A DNA stretch of 47,505 nucleotides, from NCBI GenBank assembly GCA_013115125.1, contig JABANN010000248.1, forward strand, positions 1 to 47,505, given 5' to 3'. This stretch comes from Perkinsus olseni (Eukaryota). The translations under genes and the position numbers were made by a program. The notes under the pieces are model-generated. The model saw only the letters and a list, made by a program, of their open reading frames with translations. It searched no databases and was not told the origin of the DNA. Shown piece by piece: positions 870 to 43,947 of the stretch; positions within the stretch are counted from its first letter, which is position 1, and each line of letters starts with the position of its first letter.

Positions 870-2154
870 TTAGTCCTCCTCCATCTGTGCCTCCTCTTCC
901 TCTTCAATAGACTTCTTGGCACGTTCTTGGAGTTGATGGATCTCCGCTTGGGGAATCTGCCCGCCCGAAGGAGATAAACAATGAGATACCGAATTAATAT
1001 TTTTACCATTTTATGCGACTTTCCGGTGGCATCGCACAACACAGCCATCTCCAACTCCAAGTCCTTGTCCTGAAAAAAACGTGTGCCCCGACCTATTGTG
1101 TATCTTCCACGGTTGAACAGAAGATTCTCTCACCTTCTCGTCGTGGCACTTTTGGATTATCTTAGCTGCGCTGAACTTCGCTTCCTCGCAGGTCAGATTC
1201 ACATAAGGCACGGCTGCGTCGGTTGGCAGAAGTTTCTCAATTTCAGTGCGCCCGGCCTGACGACCCTTCCCTGATAAATACGAGGATGTTGAAGGCTGCG
1301 GTAAACGAAATAAAAGATACTCGTACCCACAGCGATCCCCTTGAACTTGATAGCAGTTCCACTGGGGTCGATGCCGTAGAGTTGAGGCCCCTCAACTTCA
1401 TCGTAAACGCCCAGGAGGACTGTGCTGCCGAATGGTCGAACTGAACAAAATGAACTCTCCTGCGATTTGAACCCTAGACCTCCTGTACGACACATTGACC
1501 CTCTAACCCGTTCCGCTATTACCACTCCAGTAAAGCGTGTACATGTGCATGAACATAGCTACGCGATCCGCCAGCACCGGTCCAGGGATGGGAGTAGAAT
1601 ATACTTGCTTGTACTGAGAGCACTCCTCCCGAGCTGAAACAATAAACACATGCCGCATCGACCGAGCCGACTAATTTCAAAGAGCGTTTTGGATTGAACG
1701 ATTTTCCCCGCACACTTCAGAATGAATTTCGCTTCCAAAAATAAAACGACGATGAGTATAATCATCATGACTACCTCTCTCAACGATCTGCTTAGCATCG
1801 GCAACAAGCCCAGAGATGGCCAGAGTGGCGTGACGATCCACTGGGAATATCCTCTTGTTGGTACCCGGCACCAACATCTTCGATAGAAGAAATTTCTCGT
1901 TGGCGAAGACGATCTGAACGGGAAGGGGGAATTGCGGTATACAATAGCGATGGAATTTATTACTCCGTCCTTGCAGCACAGAGCGAGGGCAGTGCCGCCG
2001 TTATCAACTGCCTTCTGAGCGTACTCGATCTAAGACAAACATGTGTTAGCCCGTTCTGTATCCTGCATGCTTCGAGCTAAGATACCTGGAAGACCCTTCC
2101 ATCAGGGGAGTACGTCGTAGCCGAGAGATCGTATCCAGAGCCTGTTCCCGACAT
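870..2154 (-). CDS. PSMA3: 20S proteasome subunit alpha type-3 (alpha7), multi-exon
   Basis: Exons read MSGTGSGYDLSATTYSPDGRVFQ, KMLVPGTNKRIFPVDRH...GLVADAKQIVER, VRPFGSTVLLG...GPQLYGIDPSG and ELEMAVLC, ending in the acidic tail AKKSIEEEEEAQMEED* (TAA at 870-872). Confidence 0.95.
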
Positions 2155-2535
2155 TATTCCGCAAAATTAATCAAAACACTGCCTCAGATCGCTAGTTGAT
2201 CTCCGATCCCGGATGAATCTTGGGGTTGAGCGTGAAAGATACAAAACAGGTCGAGGTACGACCCAAGAATCGGCCGGCTCTGACTTGGAGTTGCACCACA
2301 ACCAAGACATCGCATTTCAGAGCTGCATCAGAGATGTCGCACTGAGTTTTTAAGCCGCACCACCATACTCCGAAGTGCATTACAGAACTCTAATGCGCGC
2401 GGGACGGAGACGCTCGGGATGAATCCTAATCGATTAGAATGGCGAGCGCTGTTGACAGCGCAGAAACGACGAGTATGAGATCCACATTCACGTCTAAGTG
2501 CTTTCCCTCAGGGATCCTGCCGACACTCAGTTGAC

Positions 2536-3989
2536 ATGGACCTTCCAGACGGCTTCATCGACCCTTCCGACGGTAGTCGTGCTGCTGTTCATATCTTGAG
2601 GTCGACTCATGCGTTTCTCAGGTGGGAAGAATCAAAGCGCCTTCACCTACAATGCTGAGCGAGTGATAGGTAGGCTGCGGGCCTTGGTCTACCCTCCCCT
2701 TGTTCAGTGGACTATTCTGTCTCTCAGGGAACGGCTCCTTTGGGATAGTCTATCAAGCGACAGTCGTGGAGACTCAAGAGAGCGTAGCCATCAAAAAGGT
2801 CTTCCAGGACAAACGATATAAAAATCGGGAACTGCACATAATGAGAGAGCTCAAGCATCCCAATGTTGTAAGTCTATCATCATCAGTAATCCTCAGTCCG
2901 ATTGAGGCGCACCTTCAGGTTACTCTGAAGCACGCGTTTTACACGAATGGTGAGCGGCCCGATGAGCTCTTCCTCAACGTCGTTATGGACTACATGTCTG
3001 ACACAGTTTATCGAGTGGTGAAGTTTTATAGCAAACAAAAGCGTCAAGTGCCGTTGCTGCTGTGCAAGCTGTATGCCTATCAAGTATGCCGTGCCCTCTC
3101 CTACTTACACAACCTTGGCATCTGCCATCGAGACATCAAACCACAGAATCTTCTGGTCTGCGCTGATACACATCGAGTTAAGATATGCGACTTTGGCTCG
3201 GCCAAGAGGCTCATCCCCGGCGAGAGTAACGTCTCCTACATCTGCAGTCGCTACTACCGTGCGCCTGAGCTCATATTCGGTGCCACAGAGTACACCTGCG
3301 TTATCGATACTTGGAGCGCTGGTGAGTGGCAAAGGCTTCCGTGACTCCGAGTGCCCTTGGTACGCTCAGGTTGTGTACTCGCCGAGACCATACTCGGGTC
3401 TCCGTTATTCCCCGGTGAAAGTGGAGTTGATCAGCTTGTTGAAGTTATCAAAATACTAGGTGAGTTCGGAAGGCGTTCGATGTTGTTAACTTGCAGTCAG
3501 GTACCCCCACGAAGGAGCAGTTGCTGGCGATGAACCCGAATTACACCGAGTTCAAATTCCCTCACATTAAGGCACATACTTGGCAGAAGGTTTTCCGCTC
3601 GAAAACGGCACCCGATGCTATCGAATTCGTAAGTGAAGTTGCTCGTCTTGAGGGCGCTAGTGTCCTCCTGTCAGATCGGTTGTACGTTGAGATACGACCC
3701 GGCCGAGCGGATCACAACAACGCAATGTTTGACGCACGTTTTCTTTGACGAATTGCGGTTGAAGTCCACTACACTACCCCCGGGCATTTTCGGGAGGGAG
3801 GCCCCCGAAAAGCCCCTCCCTCCTCTGTTCGATTTCAGCCAGGAAGAATTAATCGCATTCAGCCGGTTACCGGATGGCAAGAAGTTGGTCCCTCAATGGT
3901 ACACTAAATGCAGCAGTTTGGAGGCTCCACCAGTTGTGGCCGGATCGAGTAGCTCATCCTCGTCATCTTCAAGTTCTGCTTTCTTTTAA
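2536..3989 (+). CDS. GSK3: Glycogen synthase kinase-3 / shaggy-like Ser/Thr kinase, multi-exon
   Basis: Motifs [77 protein letters not shown] and [11 protein letters not shown]. The start at ATG 2536 is inferred because the upstream ATG at 2439 does not splice in frame. Confidence 0.95.
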
Positions 3990-6900: not shown

Positions 6901-6983
6901 TGAGCGATCGTTGAGCATAGGCTTCGACCAGTGGTCGAGAAACCTGATTACAACTGACGCAATACATCACGAATAGAAACATG

Positions 6984-9270
6984 TCACGATGATGATGAGG
7001 CTTGGCAGTCTTCCCCAGCCAAGTCCCGTGACGGGTCAAAGCGAGCCTTCATCTCCCTGAAGAGCCTGCTGGGAGGTGGAAGGGCGCCCTCATCGTCCAA
7101 CGCCCGGACCGCTTGGGTGGCCAGGAACTCCCCTACCAAAGGCTACCATCCCAACAACAGCCGTGCGGCGAGGAGCTCACCGATAACGGGAGCAAACTTG
7201 AAGCCCTCGCCGGAGAAGCCTGTCGCCACTTGTACTCGGCCGTCCGGGGCATCCCAGTGGGCTCCGATTATGAAATCATCTGACATCATCAACGCCCTCA
7301 GCCGGGGCAGCGGCGACAGGCGTACAATCTTTCATGCAGCTGAGTTGATATAAGCATCGACCATAACTACAGGCATGCGTGCCATCGAGGCCTGGGAGAT
7401 ACTGTTGTATAAAACCATTGGTAGCAGACTCGAGGTAAGGGTCCTTCTCGACCGGTACCTGCCGCCCACCAGAAGAATAATCTTCCTCGTCACTCCCAAC
7501 AAACGAGCCGAGGATGACTGGTCTGGACGTTCGTTGCATTCACCCAGGGCTGTTGGACCGTGCGCTACTCCTACTGAGGAACGGCCGCACTCAAGTACGG
7601 CCAACGAAGTTCTACAGGGCTGAGCCCAGAAACAACAGCTGCCAACTTCTAGCGGTATTCCGTCAGGGAGCATAATCAATCGACACTTCCAAGCTCACCT
7701 CTTTGATGGTCTCGGACGATCTCGAGACCGGCAGCTTCGGTAACTGCACTTTGAAGGGAAGTATGTGCTGAAGGCTTCTGATAATCTGCCCATCTTGATG
7801 CTGTCCAACTTTCACCGCGCCAATCTGAGAGAATACCCACGGTTGAAGCTGGCAGAGAATCTTTCGACTTACTCCTCCGCGCAGAGCTGGCAGACAGTAG
7901 ATTCCCAACTCCCTGTCGGGGAAATGGGGGCGATTGTGAAGGGCTGAAGGGATTGGTTTCCGACAGAAGTCAGCGAGGACTATACTAATTATTATCGGCA
8001 TTTTCGATGTCTCATGCAATGGGAGATCCTCAGCCTTCTTCGGTTCGTAGTATCTAAGGTCGATCCGTACATCTCGCAAAAACGCAGGAGGCCAGTACGT
8101 GAATTGCTCAGCTGTCGTGATGTAATTCATCAACCCAAGATAACTGTTATGTAACAGTTGGTTGGTCCAGGAGCCACAGGCGAGGATCAACGACTGAGAG
8201 AAGGAAACATCCAGTGCGAGGGCGGTGCGAGGGAGCCCCGTCGCCGCCGCTTACCCCGTATTTGACGATCTTCCCAGACCCAAAAGTAACGGTGCGGTTG
8301 TGTACGTCGACTGATACGGCCTCATCCTCAGCAATGTGATCATCGCCGACAGCAGTTCTATGTTAATGATGCATCGCTCCGCCGCCACCGGTCTCCTACT
8401 TCAACGCTTCTACCGCTTCCGTTGCGAATATGCAAGCACCATCTGTCTGCTCGATGGCAACATCACCTGGCAGGATGAAACTGTTGAGCTCCGACTGATG
8501 CATCTCACTTCTTTTCAAACGAACCATAGGATACTCCTTCTTCACCTCCCTCGGGCTGAGCTCCTGAAGTAGCGGCTACCCGCGGCGAGATGACGGCGGT
8601 GTAATTACTCGATAAGTGATGCCCAGAGTGTTGTAAGCCGTAGTAAGGTTCTTCAATAGATGCATAGTAGTGTCATGGTAAATCGTTAGCATAGGGCTCG
8701 GTTGCATCAACTCCTCCTTGACGATGCCTTCTAGAGCAGACCAAAGTGCATACGACCGCTGCATCATCCTGCGGTAATGGCACTACGCCTACAGACCGAC
8801 GCTGCCACCTACCTGATCTTCATCTCATCAGCGTATGCCAACCGCAGTATTCGAGATTCGCCCCAGCTCGACGTTATAGTCGAATCGCCTGAGCAAGCTT
8901 CTGCTGCGGCTGGATAAGATTCACAACTTACTTTTCTCCACGACAACAAAAGATACCGGCGATCCATCCTTCCTTTTCAACTTGGACGCGGCCCATGCCG
9001 CGCTGAGGCCCATCACCCCTCCACCCAATACAAGTACGTCAACAGTGCTTGGCAGGCGAGGGTCACCGACAAACTGGTTAGTGATTAGTATCTTCCATTT
9101 TTGGGCAAGCTCGAGGGTATCATTGAAGTAGCCGTATCTAAAGTATATCCAGGCACCCACGAGCGCACCTGAAGGTATCCAACATGCAGCGACGTCAGAT
9201 ACTCTCCCTTACACTTTTTCCCGCAGTAGCGCCGGACGAAGTCGTATGGTTGTCGAGCGTATTGCCACAT
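6984..9270 (-). CDS. FAD-dependent oxidoreductase, sarcosine/pipecolate oxidase (MSOX/PIPOX)-like
   Basis: Rossmann motif DVLVLGGGVMGLSAAW, then SSWGESRILRLAY, ILACGSWTNQLL and DFIIG...ATGFSGEGFKFAPVIGE. Stop TGA at 6984-6986. Confidence 0.88.
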
Positions 9271-12312: not shown

Positions 12313-15300
12313 ATGCGTCTTTTTTCTCTTCTACTGGTCTGTACGGCTATCCAGCCATCACAAGCCTTCATAGAGGATATTCTCAACCAAGCGTTCGGAG
12401 GCGCTGGCGGAGGGGGAGGGGGAGGCTTCCAATTTCAATTTGGTGGTAGTAATTAGCATCAACGGGCTCTCGAGGGGCTATGGGCGAACGTTGATAGGGG
12501 CGGCGAGCGCCGTAGATTCCACCGGATTGTTTGAGGATCATCGTTGATCGAAGTATATATTCGCGTCGCTCCGCTGTAATTAGGTGGAGGTTTTCATCAG
12601 CCGCAACAACCTCGGTACAAGCCGGTTAAGTTCCCTAAGGGGGTGACTTCGAAGATACACAAATCGATGGAGTGGATGAAAGGAACGGAGTGGATGTGGA
12701 ACGAGTGAGTCGAATAGTTTTCACCCATTTTTGCAATTCCGTTCTGACCAGTCCCAAGCCGATCGTAAGGTGAGGACTCGAGCGTCTATAGGTCGTTATA
12801 GGTTTAAGAAATTCTATAAACGGGACCAGTTCGTGCAACTCACAAATCCAAATTTTTAGCATGTTTTCTGTGTAAACTTTTATCCAACCCCACGATGGAG
12901 CGCACATCTGCAACGATGAGCTAAGATACTCTTTTTCTCGGCTGTGCGTCACAGTCATCCAACCGACCCTTCCACCGTGCTGTGAGCTACTCTGTGTCAA
13001 GTTCTATGGCTAGGGTGTGGGTCTGCTCATGAATCGGTTTCGCCAGCGGTGGCGTTGGTACGGCGATCGCTCTCACGTCCGAATGCCTGTCTGGTCGTTA
13101 CTGGTATTCGGTCGGTGATGTTTCAGTTGGGAGAAGGTTCGCTTCCAGTCGGATGGGATTTTTGTGGCCCCGACTGAGGAGTGCCATCAGCCCCAGGCTA
13201 AACAATGTAAATGGAGCGCTGATAAAGACGGGAATATTTATATAATGTGGGGGAAGTAAGTTACGGATGGAGTGGTATGGAAGCTTCAATAAACGGCGAA
13301 TGATCCTGTCTGTGCCCAATCTGATTTGATCGGAAAGTGCAATAGTTGAGGCGGAGAATTTAAACGAGGCATTTGTTACGAAGCGATTAGTTAATACCAT
13401 AACATTCGTAAATTATTGGTTTCTATCGGAGCTGGTTTCCCGCAGGAAGTCTGGGCTACACGAGGTGAAGGCTGATCACATGCCAGACGTGAATGATGAT
13501 GATTTCGAGTTGGAGTTGCCCAATGTACGGAGTGCGCGCATGGCTTAACGATAGGGCCTGTTGTTCGGCATTCGAGAGGTCCTTGGTTCAATCCCCGGCC
13601 CCTCCACTTTCAGATCTCCTTGAGCGGAAAGAGGAAGCGAGACGGTGCTCCCCTTCATGCAGAGTTCGTCCAGGTTTTCGATACAGAAATACAGGATGCC
13701 CGGAGAGATCTGTAGGACCGTTTTCTTTCATAATCGATCGAGATGGCGCGCGCTACTTGCACTCTCTCTAAGATACGGAGATCTAGGCTTGGAGCCGGGG
13801 GCAGATGTGAGTACGGTGAAGAAAGCGTTCAGGAAAATGTCTATTAAATATCACCCGGACAAGACCGGAAATGGTGAGTGTCGGATGCGGGGATCGAACC
13901 GGGGTCGTCATCGGGGAGAGCGCGTCGGTTGCAGATCCGACAGCACATCGCAAATTCACGCGGATAGGAGAGGCTAATGAGATATTATCGGATCCGGTAG
14001 TATCCAAATCGATCATCGGGGCGCGCGCGATCGTTCTGCATCTGCAGGCCAAGAAATTCCTATACGACATGGGAGGCATGGAGTCAGTGAGAGCCATGGA
14101 GAAGGGGGACATACCGCGAGGCGAAGATGGTCATGTCACCTACCCAGTACCGCTGGAGAAGCTGTAAGGGTCTTCAAGAAGTACGTTGAGGAATTGCGAG
14201 AGAGCAAGATTTTCAGGTATACTGGTTCTAAGGAGCATGTGAGGATCAATCGTCGTGTGGTCTGCACTGGATGCCGACAAAAACCGGATCTCGAGAAGTG
14301 CCGAGGGTGCGGGAAGTGCCCGGATGAGGTTAAGATGGTCCAACAGCAGGTGGGTGGATATCTAAGGGTATCTTCAAATCTTCGCTGTGCGTAAATTGGA
14401 TGAGAGTCACGATGTGTGGATCAGGTCGGGCCTGGGTTCTTCGTTCAACAACAGCAACAAGTGCCGAGTCGGGAGAGATGCAAAAATGAGGATACTGAGC
14501 TCGACCTCAACATCGAGAAGGGGATGATGGATGGCGAGCAGGTGGGGGAGGATACTCCGTATGAATCACAGGGAATGGAGGTTGTTATTACCCTCTGTGG
14601 TTTGGCAGTATTTTTCGTCATTTTGGCGTTCTCTGAGTGGTCGTTGTATTCGGTAGGATGGCCTGTGGACTCTCTCGAAATCACACAGTAAAGCTGGATG
14701 GTGGAGGGTTCTTGCTCGGTATTATGTGCCGCATGCTTCAGTCAATTTCTCAATCACCCCATTAGCACGCACGAGTGCTTCCATTTTGCGTGACAAGTTC
14801 GAGCGACAAATTTGAATTGAAATATCTTTCTCGTGCTTTCAGGTTGTTTTCGAGGGAATGGCTGAACAGCGTCCAGGACAGATCCCCGGTAATTTAATAT
14901 TTACCATCAAACAGACCAGCGACCAGAGGTTCATGCGAGAGAACGGATACGATTTGCGGACGGCAACGCAGATACCCCTGAAAGAAGCCCTTCTGGGCTT
15001 TGACAGGTCCATGGCCCACTTAGACGGCCATCAGGTGACGCAACGGATTCAGTGGTTCGCAAAGATGAGTTTCCTAGGTGCGCTTGGTGAAGCAGCCGGG
15101 TGAGGTCTGTCAACCTTTTGAGGTTATGAAGATCCCTGGGGAGGGGATGCCCCATAAAGTGGAGGGCGGCGGCCATAGTGACTACGGAGACTTATATGTA
15201 ACGCCGCTTCGCTCCGCTCTGTTTTTGGTGATCATGGTGGATTCTATCAGGTTAAGATGAATGTTAAATTCCCGGAGTCGTTGACGGATGCACAACGAGA

Positions 15301-26659: not shown

Positions 26660-29600
26660 ATGACGACGAGCGACGCCGGTCCCCCTACGAGTGCCGCGGC
26701 CTCGGCAGAAATGGCTAAGAAGAGTTCGGGCGCTCGTAAGACGAATCTTGGCTGTGCGTGAGTATCTTCGAGTATCCTTAGTCCGACTTCGATACGAAGT
26801 TGTATACGTATCTTCTGAAGACGGTAAGAGCATGCTTCAACCTCGGATACTCTTATCAATACAGGAGCTCATCCCGCCAGTGAACTGGTGGTCCCCGAGA
26901 CGACGGGAGTTGGTATGACCAGTGGCCAAGGTTGGATATCCAAAAGATTCCCTACCTACCCACAGGTTAACCTGTCTTATACCATGATGCAATGATGGTA
27001 TCTTTTTAGATACTCATACTTGAGCTGGAACGTCGTAGTATCATCAACCAGATGCAATTCCTCAGTCATCAAAGCGCGATATCGACGAAGTTGGAACTGG
27101 TAGTAACGGAGTGGGCAGCAGCAGGCGCCAGGGTCGAACCCCTTCAGTATGTGTCCGTGGAGGGGCCTCAGACGCCCTACGACCCCGTCCAGGATCCCGA
27201 TGGTTGTGATTTTATACAGTCCATACCCTTCAGAAGGTTGGGGTATCTTTCTCTAGACTCTAACGAGAAGAGTAATCGGGAATTCTGTGTTAAGCACGCT
27301 TCAACCTCGGATATCAGGTCAATGGTTGGCTCGGGAATTGAAGTCTGTCTTCGTTGACTGCGAGGCAAGATTCATCCAAATCAAATTACACAAATGTCAC
27401 GTTAACACCCTCAACCTCCAGTCGCAAGTTGTAGTAGATGATGATTCATTATGTTGCTTTTGAAGGCCGTCCCTTCAGGGCCTTATCGCGGTCAATATTC
27501 TCGGCAATTATCTTGACCCACCACCACCGCCGCCACCCGTTTTGCCCTCTGAGGATGCCAGTAGTTGGTTCGTGTGCATGCGTGCAATACCACACCATTC
27601 GCAGTTCCTCCACCAATGGTGGCCGTCCCTGTCCTACACAGTGCGGATGCCGAACCCGGGGCGCATCAGAATTCCGGCTGGCCTCCCTTGGCGGTATGGA
27701 CGGCGTGCCAAGACACTCGGTGAAAGGATATACGGCCTCTTTAGGGACCCGAAGGCCTCGGGTTCGATTCTATGGGCGAGCATTTTGGCTTGGAAGTTCC
27801 CCCAGCTGTGTACCATCCCCAACCTTCAACTGGGGACTTCTCCCCCCTAGGGCCCGAGGGTATCTTCGGGACCGAGGCTGACCCGGAAACGCAAAAGCAA
27901 ATCGATCAGCTGCTGTCATTAAAGCAGCGGGCTGTGGAGGTTATATTGTCGTCGCCGGGATTCGAACCCGCGACCTCTATCGCCGCAGGTGGAGGACTAC
28001 GACGAGGCGATGCGACTGAAAGATGAGATAACCCGGTTGCAGGGAGTATCTCGGGCGTTGGCTGAGCTGGAGCGGAGTAAACGTATCGCTGTACAGGAAG
28101 AGGACTATCCCCGGGCCAAGGCATTGAAGGAGGAGATACACCGCCTCAGGTCTGCTCACCATCGCAGAACCCTCTACCACAGTGTAACACTCAGGACCAA
28201 CGGGGCCGCGGCCCAGCCGCCTCCTCGGCAATCACAGACTGTGTATGAGCCTCGGTACCAGTACTACCATCAGCATGGCGGACATTCGTTCCAAACTCCC
28301 TTGTCGGGGGTCTCTGGCCGTACCACCCCAATGGGGTTCAGTGGGGCTGATGGTACTACGGGCCTGATGGAACCCACGATCCTTCCTCCATCATCAGCAT
28401 ACAACGGGAGCAGCAGCAGCAGCAGCCGGCCAGTGAACACACATGATGAGATGCCGGCCGTCGCAGGTCAGCCTGTCGTGACTGGCATGGGTTGAAGTAT
28501 CCTTCAGGTGGCGGTGGGAGTAGTCAGCACAGATCCATCCTAGAGGCCGGACCAAACTCCCTTCCGGTACTTTCCTTCTTCTTCCGTGTCCGATCTCGAG
28601 TCCTCAGTCGGAGTACCTCGGCCAAGATCCCTATTATGCCGTAGCAACAGCCAACACAACGCCACCAACAGCAGCAGCTCCGATAGAGACGGGAGGCACG
28701 CCCAAGACCCCACCCTTGGGAGGGGACCGGGGACCCCATCCGGACCTGCCCGACGTCCCCAACTCCGAGGCCTTGCCGGCTGCGGGTAGGGGAGGATCTG
28801 GGAGGGCCCGTGGTCAATGGTGGCTTCAGAAATACTCCCCCCAGCGGTGGCCCATGAGGCCCAAGGGGCTCCAATGACCCTGTTGGGTGAGTATATAATT
28901 CGGTGTATAGTCAGCAAGGTGAGTTACGAATGGAGTGGTATGATAATAATTAGCACACATGCGCCCGCAGGATTGGAGAGTTCGCGAGGCGGGGTTCATC
29001 CAGGCCGAGCATGACCTCGAGAAGGGCGTGTGGGCTGATAAAGGGGACGCCGTCTCGGGCGCCCACGCTGCCATCTATGCCGTCCGAAAATGTGTAACTG
29101 ATAAAATTGCAAATGTAGGCCCTTCTCCTCCCCATCCCTGCCGTTACGCTCAGCTCTGTAGGTCTTCTTGCCATGCATGAGGCTCCTCCAAGCCGCAGCC
29201 AACAGTGTCTTTAACGTGGTGGCCACACCCATCTGAAGGGAGGCTCCCTAGCCCTCCCCTCAGATGGTATCGTCGATGCCCCGCGGCTCCCGTGACCTCC
29301 ACGCCATCCTCGAGCCCCTCATGCCAGCCCTCACCGATCGGCTGTCGGACCCCAACAAGCGCTGCCAGGAGGCCACACGGAATGCTATCCTCGCCATTGC
29401 CGTCAATGTTGGCCCTTCCTTCGCCACCCATCATGTACTCGGCAGCACCACTGAAGGGAAGGGGAGCGACTTTGGTAGGTATTGAAGATAACCTCCCGTC
29501 GGGGGGCGGGTGGGAGGGCTGCTGCGGCGCCGTCCCTCCTGCCCAACAAGGCCTTGTCGGCTCGCTGTGACGTCCTGCAAGCTGTGATTGACACCTGTGG

Positions 29601-30641: not shown

Positions 30642-31070
30642 TGATGATAACTGAATTAGTGGGGGGGGAGGCTGCCGCCATCATTTCATTCCATCCATGC
30701 CGAGTTGTGTTCGTCAGTGGGAGAAAATCATTGGAGCTGCAAGGAACAAACCCCAGCCGTAGCGATGGGAACGGCGAAGTGTTTCTTGGCTCTCATGCCG
30801 TCACACCGACGAATAGATTACCGCGCACGAATGAGCTTGTGAAGCCTCCACAGCGGCGACGACGACGACGACGACGACGGCTCGGACGGATCCGCGGTGC
30901 AGTTGACACGACCAGACGCTCATTCATACGCGAAGGGGATTGCCCGTTGTGGCAGCGTTCGGGCAGCCAACTGAATAACGCAACACAGGCTTCATCGTTA
31001 ACTTGCTACCACATCGGCATCGAGTCTAACCAAGCCGGCGACGGCTTTGGACTTTAAACTGACACACTCG

Positions 31071-31295
31071 TGAGATGCATGCTTCAACCTAAGATACGGC
31101 TGCTGCAGCAGCAGCAGCAGCACCTCAACAAGTTGCCCTCCCAGCCCATCAGCAAAGCACCTCGCCAGACTCATCGTGGAGGTACGAAGGAGGAGCTCAT
31201 GCAGCATCTTCCGAGTCGGGTCCGAGTCCGACCAGTTGTCATCGAGGCTCTCTGCCAATATACCCGACTGATGAGCGAAGGGAATCAAGAATGAT
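31071..31295 (-). pseudogene. Orphan duplicated copy of one DNAAF5 exon plus flanking intron sequence
   Basis: Close, co-oriented match to 35260-35477 (SGILAESLDDNWSDSDPTRKMLHELL vs SGILAEGLDDYWSDSDPTRRMLHELL). Confidence 0.75.
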
Positions 31296-31659
31296 GTTAA
31301 CAGCCATGGTAGAGGCTGCCCGACAAGTTACGGAGGTGTGGGGCTTCCATCGCGGCCATGACAAAGTCAATGAACTTGGCCGACGGGGTTGTTTACGTAG
31401 CAGGCACTCCGGTGTCCCTCGAGAAAGAGACCCCAACTGATATCGGCCCATCCGGCACCGCAGTAGCAATGACCTTCCTAAGGCTAGTTGTCAATACTGT
31501 GCACACCTCTTCATATACGCGCGTTGCTCGACACCTATTAGGGGCGGTGCATAGCCAGCCTATTAGTATGGCGCACGAGGGACTGATGGAGACACCAACA
31601 CAAGGCGGTCCATCATCCAACAACATCAACATCATAACGACAAGTCGTGAACAACATCT

Positions 31660-33430: not shown

Positions 33431-33447
33431 CCGGCGGTCCGCTACTA

Positions 33448-33924: not shown

Positions 33925-36900
33925 TCACGATGATGATGATAGTCCCCTATTGAGGAGGGAGAGGCAGAGGTCAGGTTGGAGCGAGTTGGCTGCTGCTGTA
34001 TCAACCTCCGCTTCGAATGCACTCCCGCCGGCTGCCGACGCCTGACGACCATCAACACTCTGCCTTGCCCGTCTAGCCGTTACTGCCCACCTCCCTCAAT
34101 GCAGCATACACGGCCTTGGACAGCTGCATGTTGCTGTCGTCCAAATGCACGAACAGAGCTCGGACGATGTAACCTGAGGAGCCCTAGGGCTGCTACAGCA
34201 GCAACCGAGAGGCCCCTACCGAAGACGCTGTTGGACAGGGCCTTCATCGTCCCAGGCCGGCTGCTGAGGACCTCCATCAGCACCTCTAACGCTCGGCACG
34301 CCAAAATCCTGAAAAATCAATATTCCCCACGACAAGAGCACAACCCTCCGCAGACCTTATCTCATCAACACTATCATCGAGGCGCTTGAGCAGGTCTGGG
34401 TAGCACTCCCGAAGGACCTCCGCGTCGAACTCGTCCAACTGCTGGTCATCGGCCATCTTCCCAAAAATGTCGATGATGATGACGGTGGTGGCCAAGTGAC
34501 GATTGTCCGGCGTGAAGGCGTCGTCCAGGCTGCTCCTCAGCAGAGGAATCTGCCAACGCCTCCACGACCAAGGGGACGGAATAGGACGGGCCGTACCAGC
34601 TCTTCCAATATCGACCTCATCCAGTTGGCTTGGACAGCGGGTAAGGTCGTGTGGAGGGCCAACAGCGAGGCCTTCCTTATTCTGGTATTAGCCTAGAGAG
34701 GGTTACTCCGAGGAGGGTATCAGGGGAGATGGCAGAGTAGAGACGATGCTATCAATGGAACCAGCGGCCGAAGAAGCGGGAAGCATCGTGGGGATGAATT
34801 CAATGCGAAGTGGGGCAGAATACACACTGTGACACTATGCAAATGGCAGCAGCCCTGATCATCACACAAGGGCAACCCGCCCACCTGGCCGGGCCGCCAG
34901 ATCAAGTTCGGTAGGAGAACCCCTGTGACGAGACTAACAGCAGGAGGACTTGCCCTCGGCAGATCGACGGTAGTTGATACACCTAAGAAGCAAGACTACG
35001 ACCCGGGCACAGATCAGTCGTCCTACAGCCGATAGTCAAGTGGTGTGGCTCGGTGTCCGGGGGTGTCTGAGAAGCCTTCTTCAAGGCCTCTAGTAGGGGC
35101 CTGAGGGAGGGACTTTGACGGGTGCCGGCCGCCCTACTCACCCTCCTCCCTCCTCGGATGCTCTCCTCGCTACGTCATAGACGCTCTCGATGACGTCCAC
35201 ACGACAGCTGGGGGTACAGCGTTCAGGGTCGGATTGGAAACAGAGCATCTAATGTTGCATGAGATGCATGCTTCAACCTAAGATACGCCTGCAACAGTAC
35301 CTCAATAAGCTGCCCTCCCAGAGCATCACCAAAGCACCTCGCCAGACTCATCGTGGAGGTACGACGGAGGAGCTCATGCAGCATCCTCCGAGTCGGGTCC
35401 GAGTCCGACCAATAATCATCGAGGCCCTCTGCCAATATTCCCGACTGATGATGAGAGAAGGGAATCAACATTGATGAGATGTTCAGCTTGCCGCCTCACC
35501 AACTGTACGTCAAAGTACATGTCATAGACGGCGGCCGGCGACGTCCCTTCCCGGGCAGCCAGCAGAGCGATGCAGTCTCCCACCTGACCAGACGGGTATG
35601 TCGGCGCTCCCACAGGCGAGAAGGACCTCAGGGGAGTCCGAGGACGAGGCCACACACTGCAGCAGCAGACCGAAGAGGCGAGTGACCAAGGTGTCGGACA
35701 GCCCTGAGGATACACTGCTGCTGCTGTTGTTGCCCCCTTGACGAGTGCTGACCACCTCCCTTCAGCTGGAGCATCGCCTTCAGCACACGAGGTACGATTG
35801 TGATGGTATCGGAGGAGACGGTGAGCGCAGCGTGGATGACGTCGAGAGCGGTGGAGAGGACGTCCGTGGTGATGCTACGGCCGGCGTGGACTTCAATAGC
35901 ATCACCCAACAGCAGGAGGAGGTCCTGCCGACAGAACAGCGACAACAACCACGCAATAGACGACCGAGTCGTTCTGCGGCACGTCCAAGATGAGGAAACA
36001 GATAACGAAAGACTATTGTCTTCATCTATATCGATTTATTGGTACTCAGAGCGCTCCAGTAGCACCCACTGGTCGACCATGGGTGAACCCACCTCAGCCC
36101 CGGCCCGGGAAGTGATTCTGTAGTTATTGGTGGTCCTGGCAGCCCCCACCACTCGCGTCGTCACGCGCCCCAGGTTCTCTTCATTCCAGTAGTCGCCATC
36201 GCCTGAGCGATGATCAACAAGAGTTGGGCAAGTTGTGGTATTAGAATGTCCACGCACTGGCAGGGGCATCAGGAGTATCATCAACTGTACAGCCCAAATG
36301 CTTAGCCATAATATTAACTATGACCCCAAATGCATTGACGCCGGCACGATCCACGATAACGCCGAGCAGGGTGCCTGAACGACCACGATGGTCGGCACCT
36401 CCATGGCAACCAAGATGGTGATGATACAGTCCAGACGAGTGGTGAGGGGCAGCTCTCGGGAGGAGTAGAATGATAGAGTTATGACGAGCGTCCGGTCATC
36501 GTGAGGGGTTTGCAGACGAGCACGTTTTCAGTATATTCATCAGTCTAAACCTCCGATAAGACGAGACAAAGTGACGGCTTTGTAATGGTAGAGCTCAGAT
36601 TCTCTTCAGCCACATGCCGCTGACCTACGGCAGGCCTTGGTAACCCTCGCCTCAGCGTCAACATCATCATCTCTGATGGCCCGGTAGATGTGGATGATGA
36701 GCTCTTCGATAAACGGCATAGCCTTTCGGGTATCCGCCATCAGCATTACAGCCTGGGAGAGGTACCGGGTTCGATCCCCAGGGACGGCATTTTTCCAACT
36801 CACTGTGCACATCCTGATGATTTGCTCTCTGACACCGGTGGAGGCAGTCCATTCCACCATACCATTCAACGCGAAGCGAAGCAATGGTTCTGTGAAAATT

Positions 36901-39423
36901 GTCACGTACCTGAGGTTAAAGCATGCAAGATGCAAATCAGGTCAAGTTTGAGCTTGCGCGTCGCACCATCGGGATTCATCCGACTGGCACGCCTCTTCCT
37001 GCGTCCCTTCAACAGACCCAAACCTAGCCAACTCCGGCACCCTGCTCGGACAAGGGGGGACCTCCAGAAAATCCCCAAGCAGAACTCCTCCCTCTTTCGG
37101 GAACCCTCCCGAAAGGTCTTCCGTCGCTTCACGCTTACACAGGGCCGCCTTCCGGAGTGCATCCAAAGCACGAGTCGACACTAAAACGAACAGTGGAATG
37201 CCGCCGTTCGCGTGGGTCGATGATAACTAACCCAGATCAAACTGGTACCGTATATCAACAGGAAGATTATCCGGGTCCCATGGGCCAAGGCGATGCCTTC
37301 ATTCGTGATCACTTGCTTTTACTCTACAACTACAACTACCCCAATGGGATTACGTCGCCCACTATCGCAATGCTGCTACGTACGACGATCCGCAGCAGCA
37401 GCAGCAGAAGGCCTGTGTGTCATCACGCCCTCCGATGATGTGCGAGCCGACCTCTCACCTTTGTCATCTCCCACCATGACCATGAGTTGGCTCAAGACTC
37501 GACCCTCCCAATCCGGCATTAGCGTGGAAATCATCTCTCGAGCGGCCTCCTTCGAGGAAGCATCTTCCTCGTCCAGCGTAGTGGCCGCTGCCTTCAGACT
37601 GAACAGGTTCGAAGATTCTTCGCTGTGCGCAAGATACGCCCTACTTCTGACCATCCAACTTCGCTCCGCTAACCAAAATCCCCTCCAAAAAATCAACAAC
37701 GGTTGCTCGGACCTAAAAGGCCTCCTCAGCGTTGAGGAAATGCAAGATTGCAAGATACCTTCTCGTTTCTGTCCCTCACTAGACCATCATCAGCAGCCGC
37801 GCCCCCTATCGCGGCGATGATCTCCTCAGCGTGAGCGAAAAACAACAACTGGGGTACTGGCGGACCCGCCGAGATCAAACAGTCTGGCCCTGAGCACGCA
37901 TATCTTTGCGCACAGCAAAGATTCTTAGAATAAGCAAGAGCACCTCTCTTAAGCTTGAATGTTGCACGCATCAACATAAGATTCCTAATAGCCATCAGGG
38001 TTCGTTGACGGACCTGCCGGAGGACCTCAGCCCTCCCTCCCTCCCCCCTTGCCCACCCTCCACTGCTGATGTCGGGTATTCCGCACCAACGCCGCGACGA
38101 GGGTCTCTCGGGCGGCCGAGCAGCTCAGTACCTCAGTAAGCATGGACGACGCTCGAGCAGTATCAACGTTCGCTCTTCTGTCGCCTACCTTGTCTCCCTG
38201 TAGGGTCTCCGCCATCACTCCCACAAGGTCGCATGCCTCTTTCTTGACATCAGGACAGGTATCTTGCATTGCCATACCACACGTTTCGATAATCTAAGAG
38301 AATTCCGACTACGATTCCGCTAGCCCGCGATCTAGACAGCAGGAAGCGACGCAAGCGAACGACCTCCACAGACAGAGGAGGTCAACGTCCGGAGGGGGGG
38401 GCAAGAAAACAACAATCTCTTGAGCCCCAAGCGATTGCGAGATCCACTTGGAAGTCCCCTAGTCTGGCCACCACGCGACTCCACGTAGCACGCAAAGCAA
38501 GATCGCGGAACTAAGTTGGTCGGAACACTGCAGACTTCCCCGCACGAGGAATGTCGATCGACAATTACCGAGTTCAGGAGCACTACCGAGACTGAAATTA
38601 TCGGGTAAAGAGTCAGGACCCAGAAGCGTTCTTGAAACTCAGGGAAGGCATGAGTCTACCGCTCGTCCAGATAGATCCTCACGTCGTTCGAACTCTTGCT
38701 GATCTCCTGTCCACCAGACGAGCGTCGCAGCAACGCCCTGAGCAGGCCGATGAGCTGACATCGAAGCTCCTCGCAAGACTCCTGGCCACCCCTGATGCGA
38801 CTACAGATGGCTGCGATGAGGACCTGACCAACGACCAAGAGGAGGAGGAGGAGGAGGAGGAGGAGGAGGAGGAGGGGGCTGAGGTCATTCGACAAGTCCA
38901 TCAAGGAACGCTGATTGTTATCAGGAATCTTAGGTTGATGCGTGCAACATTCAAGTTCAAAAGATATGCTGTGTGCGAGATACTACCGAGGAAGTTTCGT
39001 CGATCGTCTCCGACTTCAAAAAATTAATAAAATTCATCATCACCTCGATGGCAGAAATCCGGACCTACGGGAAGGCATAACGATCGGGGGAAAGATACTC
39101 CGCAATCGCGACCTCGTGGACAAAGTGCAAGGGTCAACCTAAGATTCCAAACAACCCACCTTCTCCACTGGGTCAGCGAACAGTCTAGCAACAGGTTTGT
39201 GAAGATCCTCATAATACAGTCTCGACAGAGCCGCCAGCGCGTCTTCACTTGCTGGTGCAACGAGGCGTATCTTTCTCTCATGCTTGCACATCATACGTAA
39301 GGTTGCCTCCACCTCCCTCTGGATGCTTAAGATTCCTTGCAGCCGGAGCCGCCTGTCGGGGTCCGCAAGGCAATTGATGCTCCTCCTGAGACTTTGCGAT
39401 AGACTTTCGTATGATAGCGCCAT
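33925..39423 (-). CDS. DNAAF5: Dynein axonemal assembly factor 5 (HEATR2)-like HEAT-repeat protein, multi-exon
   Basis: LRRSINCLADPDRRLR, RLFADPVEK, ESCEELR, DTCPDVKKEAC, RNTRHQQWRV and YPDLLKRLDDSVDEIR. The last exon ends NRGLSSSS* (33925-33927). Confidence 0.82.
36757..36794 (+). repeat. Representative isolated tRNA 3'-fragment (T-arm/B-box) in an intron
   Basis: GAGAGGTACCGGGTTCGATCCCCAGGGACGGCATTTTT, with no D-arm or anticodon arm upstream. About 11 similar copies occur in the window. Confidence 0.75.
37941..38968. repeat. Pair of 76-bp inverted repeats in two DNAAF5 introns (37941-38016 and 38893-38968)
   Basis: Manual ungapped alignment gives 13 mismatches in 76 nt. Each copy contains the 28-bp element. 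Confidence 0.85.
38839..38874. repeat. (GAG)12 microsatellite
   Basis: Directly visible. On the minus strand it forms the pyrimidine tract before a DNAAF5 acceptor. Confidence 0.9.
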
Positions 39424-40188
39424 GATGATGAAGGGGAAAATCTGCTTCGCTCCGCTAAGAGGTCCTTCGAAGCACCAATTGTAAACCTTTGAATCGATCA
39501 TTGAATTGAGGAGAATTTCACATCAGTAAAGATAAACTAGAGAATCGATACTGAGTTTCAGAATGGCATGGGGGGAGGGCAAGAATCATTACCGAGAGCA
39601 ATGATGGGGACTAAAGTACCCGGCAGACGGAGGCGTATCTTAGGTTGACCCGTGCATAAGACGAAGAAGAGGTGGAATCTTATAATCGATACACTAGCGC
39701 GTTAACTCACAACAGCTTTTTGATGATTATGTCGAGATGATATATAAAATCTCGCCACGTTTCCAAGGTTGACTATGGTTGGATACAGAATAACTCGCAG
39801 TGCGTGGGTTGAGAGAAAATGATATTCATACTGACACTCGGTGCATCCTACTCAGGATCAACTTGCCCGATCAAAGTCACCGGAGCGACCGCATCCTCAG
39901 AGTATTGATAACATCATCACACAACAGTGAGGGTCCGAAACTGATGTATGTTGATGGGGCTTTAATTAGGTTACATTCCACCGGCCGTGACAGCGTCGGG
40001 AGGAGGAGGGGCCATGCGGGTATCGATTGCTGATGTGGCATTCTGAACAACAACGACAACAGCGGTAGTATCCAAGGTTGAAGCGTGCAGGATACACAAT
40101 ATCTCTGCGTGATGGGATATTTCGCACTACCCCAGACCTGTGCGAGGGTCAACAAGCCAGTTAGAGCTAGCGAGTCGAAGCTACTCAT

Positions 40189-43100
40189 TCACACGCCGTT
40201 TTCAACGGCGACGGTAATCAACGGCAGTGGAATCGTCCCTACCTCCGCCGAGGGTTGTTGGTTCATGAAACCACCGGTAATGTAGTCATCCTTCTCCGCC
40301 GCTCGGTATCTGAATACAACAACAGCACTAATTTCGTGGCGCGTGACGCTGGCTTCTATGTGTACTCGGCCGAAAGCTGAGCCACAGTCTCTCGGGCATG
40401 GTCGAACTCCTCCAAGTCATCAGCGAATATCGGTTCCTACAGAGGGAGCAGATCTTTCAATCGAACGACCCCGGGTCGATCCCCGCACCTGACGATATTG
40501 TTCAAGGAAAGCTCCACGACTCCTTAATTTGTCGTACTGCTTCAGGCACCTGATGATAAGAGTAATACCAGAAATTCCGGAACTCATCAAAGCCGGATAA
40601 AGATACGTCGATGGTATCTTCGATACGTGTGAGTAGCTCAATAATCTCAGGCAAGATCAAGAATAAGATTAGGCGGCGTATCTTAGGTCGATTATGGCCA
40701 AACAAAGAATATCTTTGGCTACGAGGCGCACACTGGAAGAGGTGATGAATGCCCGAGGCGAAGCAGCCTAGCTCTGACGTGTGGTTCCTTGAGAGGTCCC
40801 CGGTTCGATTCCCAGTGACGACACCTATCGAATAATGTATTAATGGAGGTATGGTTGGCCAGCATCAGTCCAGAGACTTTATGAGCATGTTGAACATAAG
40901 GGGACTGCCTCGCCAACGCCACTTGTATGCTTGCCGGACCCCATCTGATAAATAAAAATACCGCTACCGGGGATGGAACCTGCGACCTATCTACTGTATG
41001 AATCTTGCCAGTCTCCTTTCTCTAATACGCTGCAAGCTCTTATGAACCGACGCCGGGTCAACTTCACCCTAGAGAAACCAGAATCGATCACGTGATCGAT
41101 TATATCGATCAGCTAACCTGTATAATATTCAGAACAGATATATAGGCCCCCCTTCTTGTCGACGCGCTGACCATAAGATTCTTCTGCTGCAACAATCTGA
41201 AAAATGCATCAAAAATAAGCGGAGCGAAGCAGATGAGATGCCCCCTCCTCCCACCGTCTCATGACGTCCATGACTGTAGTCTTGCGGACTGTCGAGTGTG
41301 CTTGATGGACGATCGAGGTATTAGCGGTTAAAGGGGTGTAACTAAATGTGTAAAAATACCCCGACTAGGGATCGAACCTGCGCCTGTCGATAGGGAGCAT
41401 ACAATGCATACTGAGTGATGGGAGAGTAATTCCTCCTTATCACTCACAGGACTATATACTGGACCGAAGGAGGGGCGGAAAATGCGGAGATGCCACCGCT
41501 GGGGATCGAACCAGGGACCTCCGGATGCTTACCCTGTCATTAAAAAGTGGCATCTTGGCGTAGGAATCAGACTGGCCACGATTGACACCATATCGTTGTT
41601 CATATAGCCAGGGTATCTGAAGTTCAAGCTTGCAAGATACAAAGAAGGTCAAGGCTGTGCCTTAGTGTGGTAGTGCTCGCTGACATCACGGTTGATACCA
41701 GTTGGTTCGTCTGCGCGAAACTCGGGGTGGCTGAAAGAAAGATTCGCCATAATCCCCAGGACAAAAACCTACGGAGAATCTCGAAATTTATTTCATGCAT
41801 GGATCGACCTAAGATACGGTTCATCAGCCATAATGAAGAGTGGGTAGGAGGGGCAGTATGCAGGGACACTAACGATATCGGGATTTTCCCCAGCAACTCC
41901 CTAGGAGCAATACTGAGCTACTTCCCTGGTGAGAAAGCTGCCAGTGAAGACAACGACTCCTGGCGACTTCCTAGAGTGGGTACAGCAGAACTGTGGCGCT
42001 GATCGACTTAAAATTATAATCACCCAAAAATGAGTGCCCGCTTAGTTACTCAATTTCAGCCGATCAGCGGCGATACGATTGAGGGCTGTGTTATCCAGCA
42101 CCACCACTGCATCAGCATTCAATGCCAACCTGACCAGGACTAAATCTGAGCATACCGCTCCTTTCGTAACTCCCAACCTCTTCAGCGTCAACACTGAGTT
42201 GTAAGGCTGCACGACTACATCCGAAGTCTCGGTGAGCATCGGGAAGACGCTGTAAGTTTGCAGCAGCTTCTTCGGGTATCGATCGGAGAGGGTCTCTAAC
42301 AGGTAGCTCCCCATGCCCGATCCAGTACCTAAAAGATACCATCATCCAAAATCTTCGCGCTGCGGAAAATGATTCTCCGTCCCTAACGCTCATACTTCCA
42401 CTTTCATACTGGATAGCGGATGACCAACCGACCAAACAACTTCCCAGCGTTGAGGAAATGCAAGATTGCAAGATTTTCCCCCACACCTACCCCCTGCAAT
42501 GGAATGCAGCAGCATGAAGCCTTCAAGCGAGTCGCTGCCGTCCGCCTCGCGATCGATCATCTCACAGATCTCCTCCTGGACGGCCTCCGCCTGGGAATAC
42601 CCCTTCGCCCAATTGTTACCTCAACAACACTAATACACCGCCTCAAACCAACAAATCGATCATCCGGGCGCGCGCTACCTGCTCCACCGCCTTCCTTGGA
42701 CATGTAGATATTTTCTGGGTTATAAAGGTTCTTAAATTCGGAGGTTTGTATTTGATTTATCACCCTCGGCTCCAAATCGATCAGCAAGGCTCTAAGCAAG
42801 AGAACGTAGCCACCGACCCTCCCCACAGACCGGCGGCGAGAAGGGAAGAGATCGCACTACTGATGGCAGAATGACTAGGCCCAATTCCACGTCACCGAAA
42901 GAAATATCGCTTAAGTTAGTATTACTGAGTGTGGAAGAATCTTTTTTTGATACTGGCAGTATGTATGTTACTAACATAGTATCATAAAGATCATAACTAG
43001 TGTATGCCAATGATGTGCTAAGATATTATCGCTCACATGTTGAACAAAATTCGTAAAAAACGATGAAAAGCGGTGAAATTTTTCCCTGTTTCCTGGCGAA

Positions 43101-43701
43101 GATTCCTGGCCTGGTCCGGTCCGGAGCTGATACTAACAACGACCTCATGGTGGGAGGGGCAAGCAACAAGAGTGGTTTTAACATACGGCAGTTACCACCA
43201 CGGGACGAAACAAATTGCGTAAGTTTTGGTACGCACTTTTGGACCAGAGGAGATGAGCACGGCAGAGTAAACAGAGAAGAGGGATACAACATGCTTAGGA
43301 GTGACAGAGTCCTTCACTCTAATGACAGCGAAAATATTACTGCCTACACAGTCTGAACAGTGAACCGTGTAATAATACCGGTCCCAGGATTCGAACCGGG
43401 GACCTCCTTACCTGGGTATGTAATGCTCGTCATCGGCTTGGTAGAAGAATACATCTTTACGGTCCTCGGCTGGGGGCTGATTGGGAGGAGGCGGTCTCAG
43501 AATACCATCGGGGTCGATACCTGGTGAATGTATCTTAGGTCGACCCGTGAAAGATACGAAATAGGTCTCTTCCGAGCAGTCTCAACATCTTGAATACGAT
43601 ACACATCCCCTACCGTGTTCAGCACACAACTGCTGCCAAAATTCGCTGCCGACTTGATTGCCGCATTGTCCAACTTGAAGAGTGACAATCTCACGAGGCA
43701 T
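40189..43701 (-). CDS. TUBG1: Gamma-tubulin, highly intron-rich
   Basis: [98 protein letters not shown] and [11 protein letters not shown]. The exact 3' end is uncertain. Confidence 0.95.
43530..43557 (+). repeat. Representative copy of the dispersed 28-bp GTATCTT-N14-AAGATAC element
   Basis: GTATCTTAGGTCGACCCGTGAAAGATAC. Other 28-nt copies start at 2058, 2215, 24842, 36906, 38925, 39759, 40068, 41613, 43698 and 43883. Confidence 0.85.
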
Positions 43702-43947
43702 CTTCAAGTTGAGCTGGCAAGATACAAAAAAGGTTATCTCATGGCCCATCGTAACAACTCAAGATCGGTCATCAATTCCCGGGTAGTAATACGTAAAAAT
43801 GGTGCAACAGGGAGAATCCCCCGAGTTTGAAAACAATGTGACGTAAAACGTCCGGCTAATCTCAGCCTTCAACCCTCCCAAAGATACCAAGCTTGGACCA
43901 TGCAAGATACGAAATAGGTTAACTCTCGCTACTTCCAGTGAGAATGA

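Follow-up and report, generated by a model that had tools for sequence, protein, structure and literature searches.

Host genes and the repeat unit

The subject of this report is a 28-nucleotide (nt) repeat with inverted ends found in a 47,505-nt stretch of Perkinsus olseni DNA (contig JABANN010000248.1 of assembly GCA_013115125.1, positions 1 to 47,505, hereafter the window), where some of its copies overlap splice sites and one overlaps a start codon. Protein matches and NCBI models identify a gamma-tubulin gene (TUBG), the gene for the proteasome alpha-3 subunit (PSMA3) on the minus strand, and a HEAT-repeat gene that NCBI names "HEAT repeat-containing protein 2" (HEATR2), for which we take DNAAF5 to be the current symbol. 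The names PSMA3, TUBG and DNAAF5 had been given in the original prediction, a reading of the bare letters that preceded this analysis, and protein alignments and NCBI models show them to be correct. Genes for a GSK3-like kinase, with its Pkinase domain downstream of intron 1, and for GAPDH are also present. A gamma-tubulin exon is 100% identical to several NCBI P. olseni proteins and 98% identical to one from P. chesapeaki. Moreover, P. chesapeaki model P0011 fuses an upstream gene with tubulin and HEATR2, which indicates a conserved gene order.

Reading frames and protein conservation allowed thirteen tubulin and seven PSMA3 introns to be placed. Of the tubulin junctions, the first five match the NCBI models, and two more minus-strand introns (99 and 41 nt) are backed by contigs of runs X7 and X10, presumably RNA. 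The introns of the window are short, from 41 to 100 nt, and their donors are loose, being GTAGGG, GTAAGG, GTTGGG, GTAACT and GTAATA, among others.

The repeat unit consists of 7-nt inverted arms, GTATCTT and AAGATAC, around an asymmetric 14-nt core, AGGTTGAAGCATGC. The strand reading GTATCTTAGGTTGAAGCATGCAAGATAC is named forward here and its complement, GTATCTTGCATGCTTCAACCTAAGATAC, reverse. Because the core is not palindromic, the copies have a definable orientation; with a covariance model, each scores more than 20 bits better on one strand than on the other. A weight-matrix scan built from the copies listed in the original prediction returned 23 sites which, together with a shifted partial copy at 2591, make 14 full and 10 one-armed copies (Table 1). 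All 12 of the 28-nt copies listed previously lie where they had been placed, with identities of 17-25 of 28 to the earlier consensus, the weakest being 39759 (17/28), 43698 (19/28) and 43883 (20/28, its left arm not palindromic). Two full copies (1100-1127 and 9175-9202) go beyond that list, and a scan with the covariance model yielded no additional full copies in the window. Among the 12 one-armed copies proposed earlier, ten are real (2591, 8050, 26823, 27287, 31070, 35259, 39120, 39635, 40678 and 41790), and those at 12902 and 33239 were dropped, as they match approximately the first 12 nt only (14/28 and 16/28, respectively).

The arrangement is far more frequent than expected by chance. 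The pattern GTATCTT-N14-AAGATAC occurs at 7 sites with at most two mismatches, compared with 0.10 expected, and none of 100 shuffled sequences reaches 7; no other 7-mer of the window is as over-represented as GTATCTT (41 occurrences vs 9.3 expected). Scores of identity to the consensus reach a plateau at about 20 segments, with 21 at ≥18/28 and 18 at ≥20/28, against 353 at 14/28. Also, when each arm is allowed at most one mismatch, a spacer of 14 is observed in 7 pairs and any other spacer from 0 to 60 in at most 2, whereas third-order Markov simulations (n = 100) give a mean of 0.1 and a maximum of 1 for spacer 14. The fixed length originally proposed is borne out by this sharp peak. In contrast, the accompanying statement that the core drifts was too strong, since mean column identity is 79%, the core is conserved about as well as the arms, and positions G20 and C17 are invariant or nearly so.

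On the forward strand, 8 of 13 full copies run on into an A-rich stretch ending in AGGT, giving an extended unit of approximately 38 nt whose reverse strand is pyrimidine-rich and ends in AAG followed by ATAC. The one-armed copies retain GTATCTTAGGTTGAAGCATGCA and have lost the other arm. Subfamilies with common multi-base variants are recognizable, for example GAAGC(A/G)TGC, GA(C/T)CC(G/A)TG and GA(C/T)TATGG. An origin from tandem arrays is ruled out, there being none in the window. Variant arm layouts are observed at 26998-27013 and 40590-40640, comprising a mini-palindrome, GTATCTTTTTAGATAC, with a spacer of 2 between 7-nt arms, and outward-facing arms of the form AAGATAC-N7-GTATCTT.

Copies at splice junctions and a start codon

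All copies that could be placed are non-coding, lying in either orientation in introns, untranslated regions (UTRs) and gene flanks or spacers. The original description, in which copies sit almost wholly in introns, at intron edges or in gene flanks, holds for each of them. Roughly a third of the placed introns hold a copy: a full one in two of the seven PSMA3 introns, and a copy of either kind in 4 of the 13 tubulin introns, two of these being full. Four further copies lie in HEATR2 introns, three in the spacer between tubulin and HEATR2, and two upstream of the tubulin ATG, while those at 31070 and 35259 are located at the ends of two paralogous introns. Relative to transcription, the 20 copies assigned to genes (all but 8050, 9175, 26823 and 27287) comprise 7 forward and 13 reverse, a bias that is not significant.

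The donor proposed within the 2058 copy is confirmed, because residues 1-23 of solved PSMA3 chains align with exon 1 of the gene and residues 24-45 with exon 2, which sets intron 1 at 2085-2030. For the acceptor proposed in the 41613 copy, alignment to solved gamma-tubulins fixes intron 7, with exon 7 ending at human residue 243, exon 8 starting at residue 245 and a codon divided between them. For the acceptor in the 36906 copy, support comes from NCBI P. olseni model P0121, which joins ..DESRW to YVTIF.. at this point. The tubulin ATG does lie inside an arm of the 43698 copy, as had been noted; model P0008 begins upstream and translates this copy, whereas P0007 begins with MPREIV. Models P0005 and P0009 lack the exons that flank tubulin intron 7. 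Since public P. olseni models break at the units or read through them, a model of the element would improve annotation.

In both acceptor cases, the extended unit forms the last 34 letters of the intron (34 of 44 in tubulin, 34 of 57 in HEATR2). The 24-nt GT..AG unit is not itself the intron in any of the three verified or model-supported cases; its excision alone would leave a stop in PSMA3 and break the frame in tubulin. Moreover, the acceptors in use (36906 and 41613) read CAG, whereas the family consensus is AAG, and C at acceptor position -3 occurs in only three full copies, these being two of them. From this, copies seem to have been adapted once in place, the family itself not having been shaped as an acceptor. 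Further reverse copies stop short of an acceptor, by 9 nt in tubulin intron 1 and, judged by eye only, by 3-24 nt elsewhere, and four of five forward intronic copies start 0-18 nt past the donor, although with introns so short this closeness to intron ends is only a hint.

Table 1. Copies of the repeat and associated introns in the window.
Feature	Position	Strand	Location and remarks
Full copy, forward GTATCTTAGGTTGAAGCATGCAAGATAC	1100-1127	-	In PSMA3 intron 6, 6 nt past donor GTGAGA; intron inferred by eye
PSMA3 intron 1	2030-2085	-	56 nt, GT-AG, phase 0
Full copy	2058-2085	-	Opens with the donor GT of PSMA3 intron 1 (letters 2085 and 2084)
Full copy	2215-2242	+	Between divergent starts: PSMA3 ATG 2154 (minus), kinase ATG 2536 (plus)
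One-armed copy	2591-2613	+	In putative 49-nt first intron (2573-2621, by eye) of GSK3-like kinase
One-armed copy	8050-8077	+	From weight-matrix scan and identity score
Full copy	9175-9202	-	From weight-matrix scan and covariance model
Full copy, perfect arms	24842-24869	-	About 400 nt past the end of the GAPDH frame (3' flank); in run X7 contig 24737-25236 (presumably RNA)
One-armed copy	26823-26850	-	Plus strand is GTAAGA + GCATGCTTCAACCTCGGATAC
One-armed copy	27287-27314	-	From weight-matrix scan
One-armed copy	31070-31097	-	Exact start of 226-nt stretch in common with 35260-35476; just upstream of plus-strand terminal coding exon
One-armed copy	35259-35286	-	Paralogue of the 31070 copy
Full copy	36906-36933	+	Contains acceptor AG (36911-36910, minus) of HEATR2/DNAAF5 exon; exon begins with the copy's last 4 letters
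HEATR2/DNAAF5 intron	36910-36966	-	57 nt, GT-AG; last 34 nt are the extended unit
Full copy	37957-37984	-	In one arm of 124-nt inverted duplication (37939-38061)
Full copy	38925-38952	+	In other arm of the inverted duplication (38847-38970), HEATR2 intron
One-armed copy	39120-39147	-	About 10-12 nt past donor of HEATR2 intron (~39156-39065)
Nearly full copy	39635-39662	+	Spacer between tubulin 3' end and HEATR2 start
Full copy	39759-39786	+	Tubulin-HEATR2 spacer; inner arms altered yet pairing (TCCAA..TTGGA)
Full copy	40068-40095	+	Tubulin-HEATR2 spacer; GTATCC..GGATAC
One-armed copy	40678-40705	+	In tubulin intron 12
Full copy	41613-41640	+	Contains acceptor AG of tubulin intron 7; exon begins with last 4 letters (ATAC)
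Tubulin intron 7	41617-41660	-	44 nt, GC-AG; last 34 nt are the extended unit
One-armed copy	41790-41817	-	In tubulin intron 6
Tubulin intron 1	43521-43613	-	93 nt, GT-AG; NCBI models read ..AEHG/IDPDG..
Full copy	43530-43557	+	Tubulin intron 1, ends 9 nt before acceptor
Full copy	43698-43725	+	Arm includes tubulin start codon (43701-43699, minus)
Full copy, degenerate	43883-43910	+	About 185 nt upstream of tubulin ATG

The ends of the unit recall the U12 introns of Physarum, which carry rtatctt...aagATAT as inverted repeats bordered by TA and have a TTTGA branch site 9-12 nt ahead of the acceptor (bioRxiv 10.1101/2020.10.12.336362, by Larue, Elias and Roy). The Perkinsus unit has the same TATCTT...AAGATA ends, ATA after the acceptor AAG and, in one orientation, TTGA at -10: its forward strand reads GTATCTT-AGG-TTGA-AGCATGCAAG followed by ATAC, the A of TTGA being 10 nt before AAG, and PSMA3 intron 1 itself begins with GTATCTT. 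Nonetheless, it is very unlikely that the unit carries signals of the minor spliceosome. The repeats of Physarum bound whole introns removed by this machinery, whereas in PSMA3 and tubulin, the verified cases, and in HEATR2 the 24-nt unit is not what is excised; the unit also has a fixed 14-nt core. In addition, PSMA3 intron 1 lacks TTTGA near its acceptor, and its GTATCT fits a loose donor of the major type, because the other 21 introns read by eye start with GTAGGG, GTAAGG, GTTGGG and the like. Perkinsus is also an alveolate, and the minor spliceosome is reported absent from other Alveolata (PMC7789003); no small nuclear RNA of Rfam was detected in the window.

Reverse copies just upstream of three start codons, together with ATCTTG...CTCAA-like words in common with the P. 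marinus spliced leader, ACCGTAGCCATCTTGGCTCAAG (PMC9399869), could indicate that the copies are leader relics from retroposed mRNAs, as described for dinoflagellate 5' UTRs. This origin is extremely improbable, and we reject it, since the copies resemble the leader no more than background sequence does. When the 22-nt leader is aligned locally with the 23 copies, the mean score is 11.2, compared with 10.6 for 4,000 random 44-mers of the window, and the last 15 nt of the leader are unmatched in the window within 3 mismatches (1.4 matches expected by chance). Furthermore, most copies are intronic.

Possible spread by copying or selected function

The copies are related by descent, given their common asymmetric core, the subfamilies with linked variants, the presence of both orientations and the location in unrelated genes. 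They are retained only in transcribed but non-coding DNA, that is, introns, UTRs and spacers. The reading that we favor, with a probability of about one half, is that they constitute a dispersed family of short hairpin-ended repeats which spread by copying and whose ends were recruited as splice signals. Spread would have occurred by some copy-and-insert process. The end starting with GT would then be used as a donor, as in PSMA3 intron 1, and the pyrimidine-rich strand ending in AG as an acceptor region, as in tubulin intron 7 and a HEATR2 intron. Recruitment would come after insertion and would not be the purpose of the unit; the loose splice signals and the introns of 41-100 nt would make its ends readily recruited.

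The original prediction had inferred an ultra-short mobile or introner-like unit, or else the binding site of a dimeric protein or recombinase, that shapes gene structure. From the first proposal, a dispersed unit of fixed length that supplies splice sites and overlaps a start codon is retained, whereas there is no sign of movement in these data and no whole intron is made of a copy. The second is weakened by the conserved asymmetric core, by the ten copies with the core but only one arm, and by the subfamilies with multi-base variants.

Alternatively, the unit could be a selected cis-element, such as an RNA- or DNA-binding site or a signal for splicing or processing. In that case function would preserve its hairpin, length and sequence, and there would have been no mobile spread. 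We consider this account possible but rather unlikely. Its pyrimidine-rich strand would represent a ready branch, polypyrimidine and AG module, used in cis-splicing and perhaps also in adding the spliced leader upstream of starts. The spacer fixed at 14 agrees with such a role, and so do the arms, which pair in 84.7% of 98 arm cells, compared with 78.9% for shuffled controls, of which 3 of 500 attain the real figure, and 16-48% for slid controls. The covariation score of the arms is likewise 0.204 against 0.108 in shuffles (0 of 500). The co-variation that had been claimed for the arms is thus real but modest, with few events behind it: double changes are found in just 6 arm cells, two of them from one duplicated pair, and one-sided breaks in 15, while no cell is both changed on the two sides and broken. 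On the other hand, the ten copies without one arm keep the core, so the palindrome is dispensable. The RNA hairpins are also weak, with minimum free energies from -1.9 to -9.9 kcal/mol and z-scores from +0.6 to -3.6, only 4 of 10 folds having z ≤ -2. A stable RNA hairpin is therefore a weak candidate for the main constraint.

Conservation in a related strain and in a diverged relative also bears on this question. Just ahead of the HEATR2 exon that follows the 36906 copy, the product P0122 of a relative's contig reads through "PVLYLVCGDLRY", the window's counterpart being "PDLHLACFNLRY". The alignment across the acceptor is ungapped, with 24 of 33 exon residues and 7 of 12 read-through residues of the element identical. 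As the 36906 copy is retained in P0122, the family and this copy predate that divergence. At closer range, copies are conserved in a 95-99% similar strain, where contigs of two DNA runs span five copies, all of them present with no gap among the joints considered (15 of 71, to which all statements on gaps and joins refer). A selected function would explain this retention, whereas the subfamilies of linked variants point to copying.

The positions of the copies can be read in both ways. For a cis-element, it is suggestive that reverse copies stop 0, 0 and 9 nt short of acceptors that are verified or model-supported and that all six copies upstream of the PSMA3, tubulin and HEATR2 starts have their pyrimidine-rich strand in the sense of the downstream gene. 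However, three of these six share one spacer, the 2215 copy is equally upstream of a divergent gene for which its orientation is the opposite one, introns contain both orientations, and the consensus AAG is a poor acceptor. The core also includes GCATGC, presumably an AP2-type or Rbfox-type word and a candidate only. The selected cis-element and the repeat family are not mutually exclusive.

A further possibility, which we regard as doubtful, is that the unit forms the conserved terminus of some longer element, for example the 3' tail of a pair of short and long interspersed nuclear elements (SINE and LINE) or the terminal repeat of a miniature inverted-repeat transposable element (MITE), the copies of the window being mostly extreme truncations. 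The A-rich stretch after the forward 28-mer in most copies and the abundance of tRNA-like, SINE-type sequences in the same introns are consistent with this idea. Two pairs of copies do share longer sequence, on the forward-upstream side only. One of these is a duplicated coding exon (226 nt, 31071-31296 and 35260-35476) and the other a 124-nt inverted duplication in HEATR2 introns (37939-38061 and 38847-38970), and the two are unlike each other. Apart from these local duplications, self-comparison of the window shows no flank common to the copies and no longer element with the same ends, so the unit is not the end of such a repeat within the window, a possibility raised together with the original prediction. 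Moreover, the 5' edge is fixed at GTATCTT and not ragged.

Returning to spread by copying, contigs of DNA runs X8 and X9 end in the unit or join across it, with matching sides of 20-22 nt and differing flanks, for example 35286 to 41796/41797 and 36934 to 43717. Such short matches followed by divergence would be expected if a related genome had additional copies at other places. Six consensus strings of loose ends were also compared, and none mapped inside the window. For the copy in tubulin intron 1, the protein matches checked aligned through their exons only.

Several observations weigh against the favored reading. The repeat was analyzed in a single 47.5-kb Perkinsus window. No transposase was seen in the window, nor any empty site, the five copies spanned by contigs of the related strain all being present. 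A target-site duplication was sought by comparing the inner AGGTYRAG with the flank, and similarity is 4.38 within copies vs 4.22 between copies (permutation p = 0.35), which rules out AGGTYRAG in this role; the TA within the arms, as a target-site duplication, is not distinguishable from the palindrome itself. We know of no nuclear mobile element as short as 28-38 nt. Finally, a selected function would likewise be consistent with the fixed length, the modest covariation of the arms, the copy retained in P0122 and the closeness of many copies to intron ends.

A stronger form of the copying model, which we put forward only tentatively, is that the unit would be the smallest known nuclear mobile element, a hairpin-ended "micro-introner" of 28-38 nt inserting in transcribed DNA in either direction. 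The density in the window, approximately 0.5 copies per kb, would, for a genome in the range of a few tens of Mb, correspond to tens of thousands of Perkinsus copies. If this were true, a latent donor and acceptor region could seed, extend or shift introns and possibly provide acceptor sites for the spliced leader.

Known elements and neighboring sequences

The unit resembles MITEs of the Stowaway or Tc1-mariner type and bacterial repetitive extragenic palindromic (REP) elements in being short, non-coding, hairpin-ended, highly repeated and located beside coding sequence, and the TA next to TCTT and AAGA in its arms can be compared with MITEs that have TA target sites. However, known MITEs measure at least about 50-80 nt and have clear duplications, and REP elements are bacterial and moved by REP-associated tyrosine transposase (RAYT) enzymes, whereas neither a clear duplication nor a mover of the RAYT type was found for the Perkinsus unit in the window.

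Introners are typically more than 100 nt long. Those of Micromonas and Aureococcus, like those in the survey of Gozashti et al. 2022 (PMC9860276), share with the unit the existence of many similar copies in unrelated genes, terminal inverted repeats and ends that supply splice sites. In contrast, they are whole introns with target-site duplications that complete a splice site, and the Perkinsus unit is a fraction of an intron for which no duplication was found. The ends of a copy are not the ends of an intron here, since only one of them coincides and the introns measure 56, 44 and 57 nt compared with the 28-nt unit. The main text of the 2022 survey makes no mention of Perkinsus.

A related lineage with a comparable system is Amoebophrya (Syndiniales). 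According to Farhat et al. 2021 (PMC7789003), its introner elements have inverted repeats of 8-20 nt at both ends of an intron of 120-240 nt, direct repeats of 3-5 nt over the boundaries and mostly non-canonical splice sites. Both systems occur in Dinozoa, are associated with introns, include inverted repeats capable of forming hairpins and lack a recognizable transposase. Nonetheless, the Perkinsus arms are of 7 nt, 14 nt apart within 28 nt, and at most one of them touches an intron boundary, so that the combination of inverted repeats at both intron ends with a direct repeat over the boundary is absent. Also, the introns of the window are GT-AG or GC-AG, no direct repeat was found, and copies are present in UTRs and spacers as well. 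If the micro-introner proposal were correct, the unit might be a short ancestral form of the Amoebophrya hairpin introners, and its TA-TCTT...AAGA-TA ends, which match the transposon signature proposed for the Physarum U12 introns, could point to a shared or convergent insertion mechanism.

No description of the unit was found in the literature on Perkinsus introns, introners, repeats, transposable elements, genome assemblies and spliced leader, supplements and subscription papers aside; the passages of PMC7789003 on Perkinsus and introners contain none either. Therefore, as far as seen, the unit has not been described previously, and it would be of the introner or MITE-like kind and not a separate category. 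A scan of metagenomes with the pattern gave 24 loci, none of which has the right arm (0/24), and no relatives were found. Thirteen of these 24, metagenome contigs with GC contents of 0.36-0.41 (including L001, L002, L007, L008, L010, L012, L016-L019 and L024), share GTATCCTAGGTTGAAGCATGCATTAGCT with identical flanks in one unrelated context. This sequence fits the left arm and core of the element, with no right arm, and L001 contains no Rfam family; the match is probably due to chance.

The unit bears on the gain of introns and on the shaping of gene structure by short repeats. The intron-generating elements known so far each make up an entire intron, at least 100 nt in length, whereas the Perkinsus unit is far shorter than any intron and provides one donor and two acceptors, one of them model-supported. 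If it does spread, it would represent an intron-shaping element of a new and far smaller kind, in the lineage that is sister to the dinoflagellates. The same lineage uses spliced-leader trans-splicing, and its relative Amoebophrya has hairpin introners.

Other dispersed sequences are located near the repeat. A second family comprises tRNA-like 3' halves with the T-arm or B-box word GGTTCGATTCCC, which has 14 matches within 2 mismatches vs 4.4 expected; its sites are 829-863, 13585, 13889, 27761, 27957, 36768, 40473, 40802, 40969, 41367, 41501 and 43386. Such sequences directly follow the donor in tubulin introns 2, 8, 11, 12 and 13, one is present in the PSMA3 3' UTR, and P0122 reads through a tRNA-like motif in the intron adjoining the HEATR2 exon. 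The contig-supported 99-nt intron at 44355-44257 is almost entirely tRNA-like, with A-box and B-box words, and ARAGORN calls no tRNA in it; no tRNA genes or Rfam families were detected anywhere in the window. In addition, a 35-nt repeat with 94% identity links 37722-37756 (HEATR2 intron) and 42440-42474 (tubulin intron 4), reading ATCTTGCAATCTTGCATTTCCTCAACGCTG.. on the minus strand; at 37758 it begins with GTATCTTGCA, resembling the reverse element. It is probably a third, related dispersed family, because several RNA and DNA contigs match it and then diverge.

With regard to the remaining coding potential, no Pfam matches were obtained for ten open reading frames (ORFs) of the HEATR2 region, and a protein search with the ORF at 39142-39522 gave no match. 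An open frame of 525 codons on the minus strand (18719-20296), also without a Pfam match, contains six 95-nt repeats that encode a cysteine-rich unit, C..YC..L...SFCKWW....VCQ.GDQPCG. Finally, the word pair ATCGAT ... GGCGCGCGC occurs at 2428-2459, 13732-13760, 14005-14028, 22672-22707, 26360-26390 and 42652-42682. It lies between divergent gene starts (PSMA3 and kinase; GAPDH and its neighbor) and once in tubulin intron 3, and it may be a promoter element.

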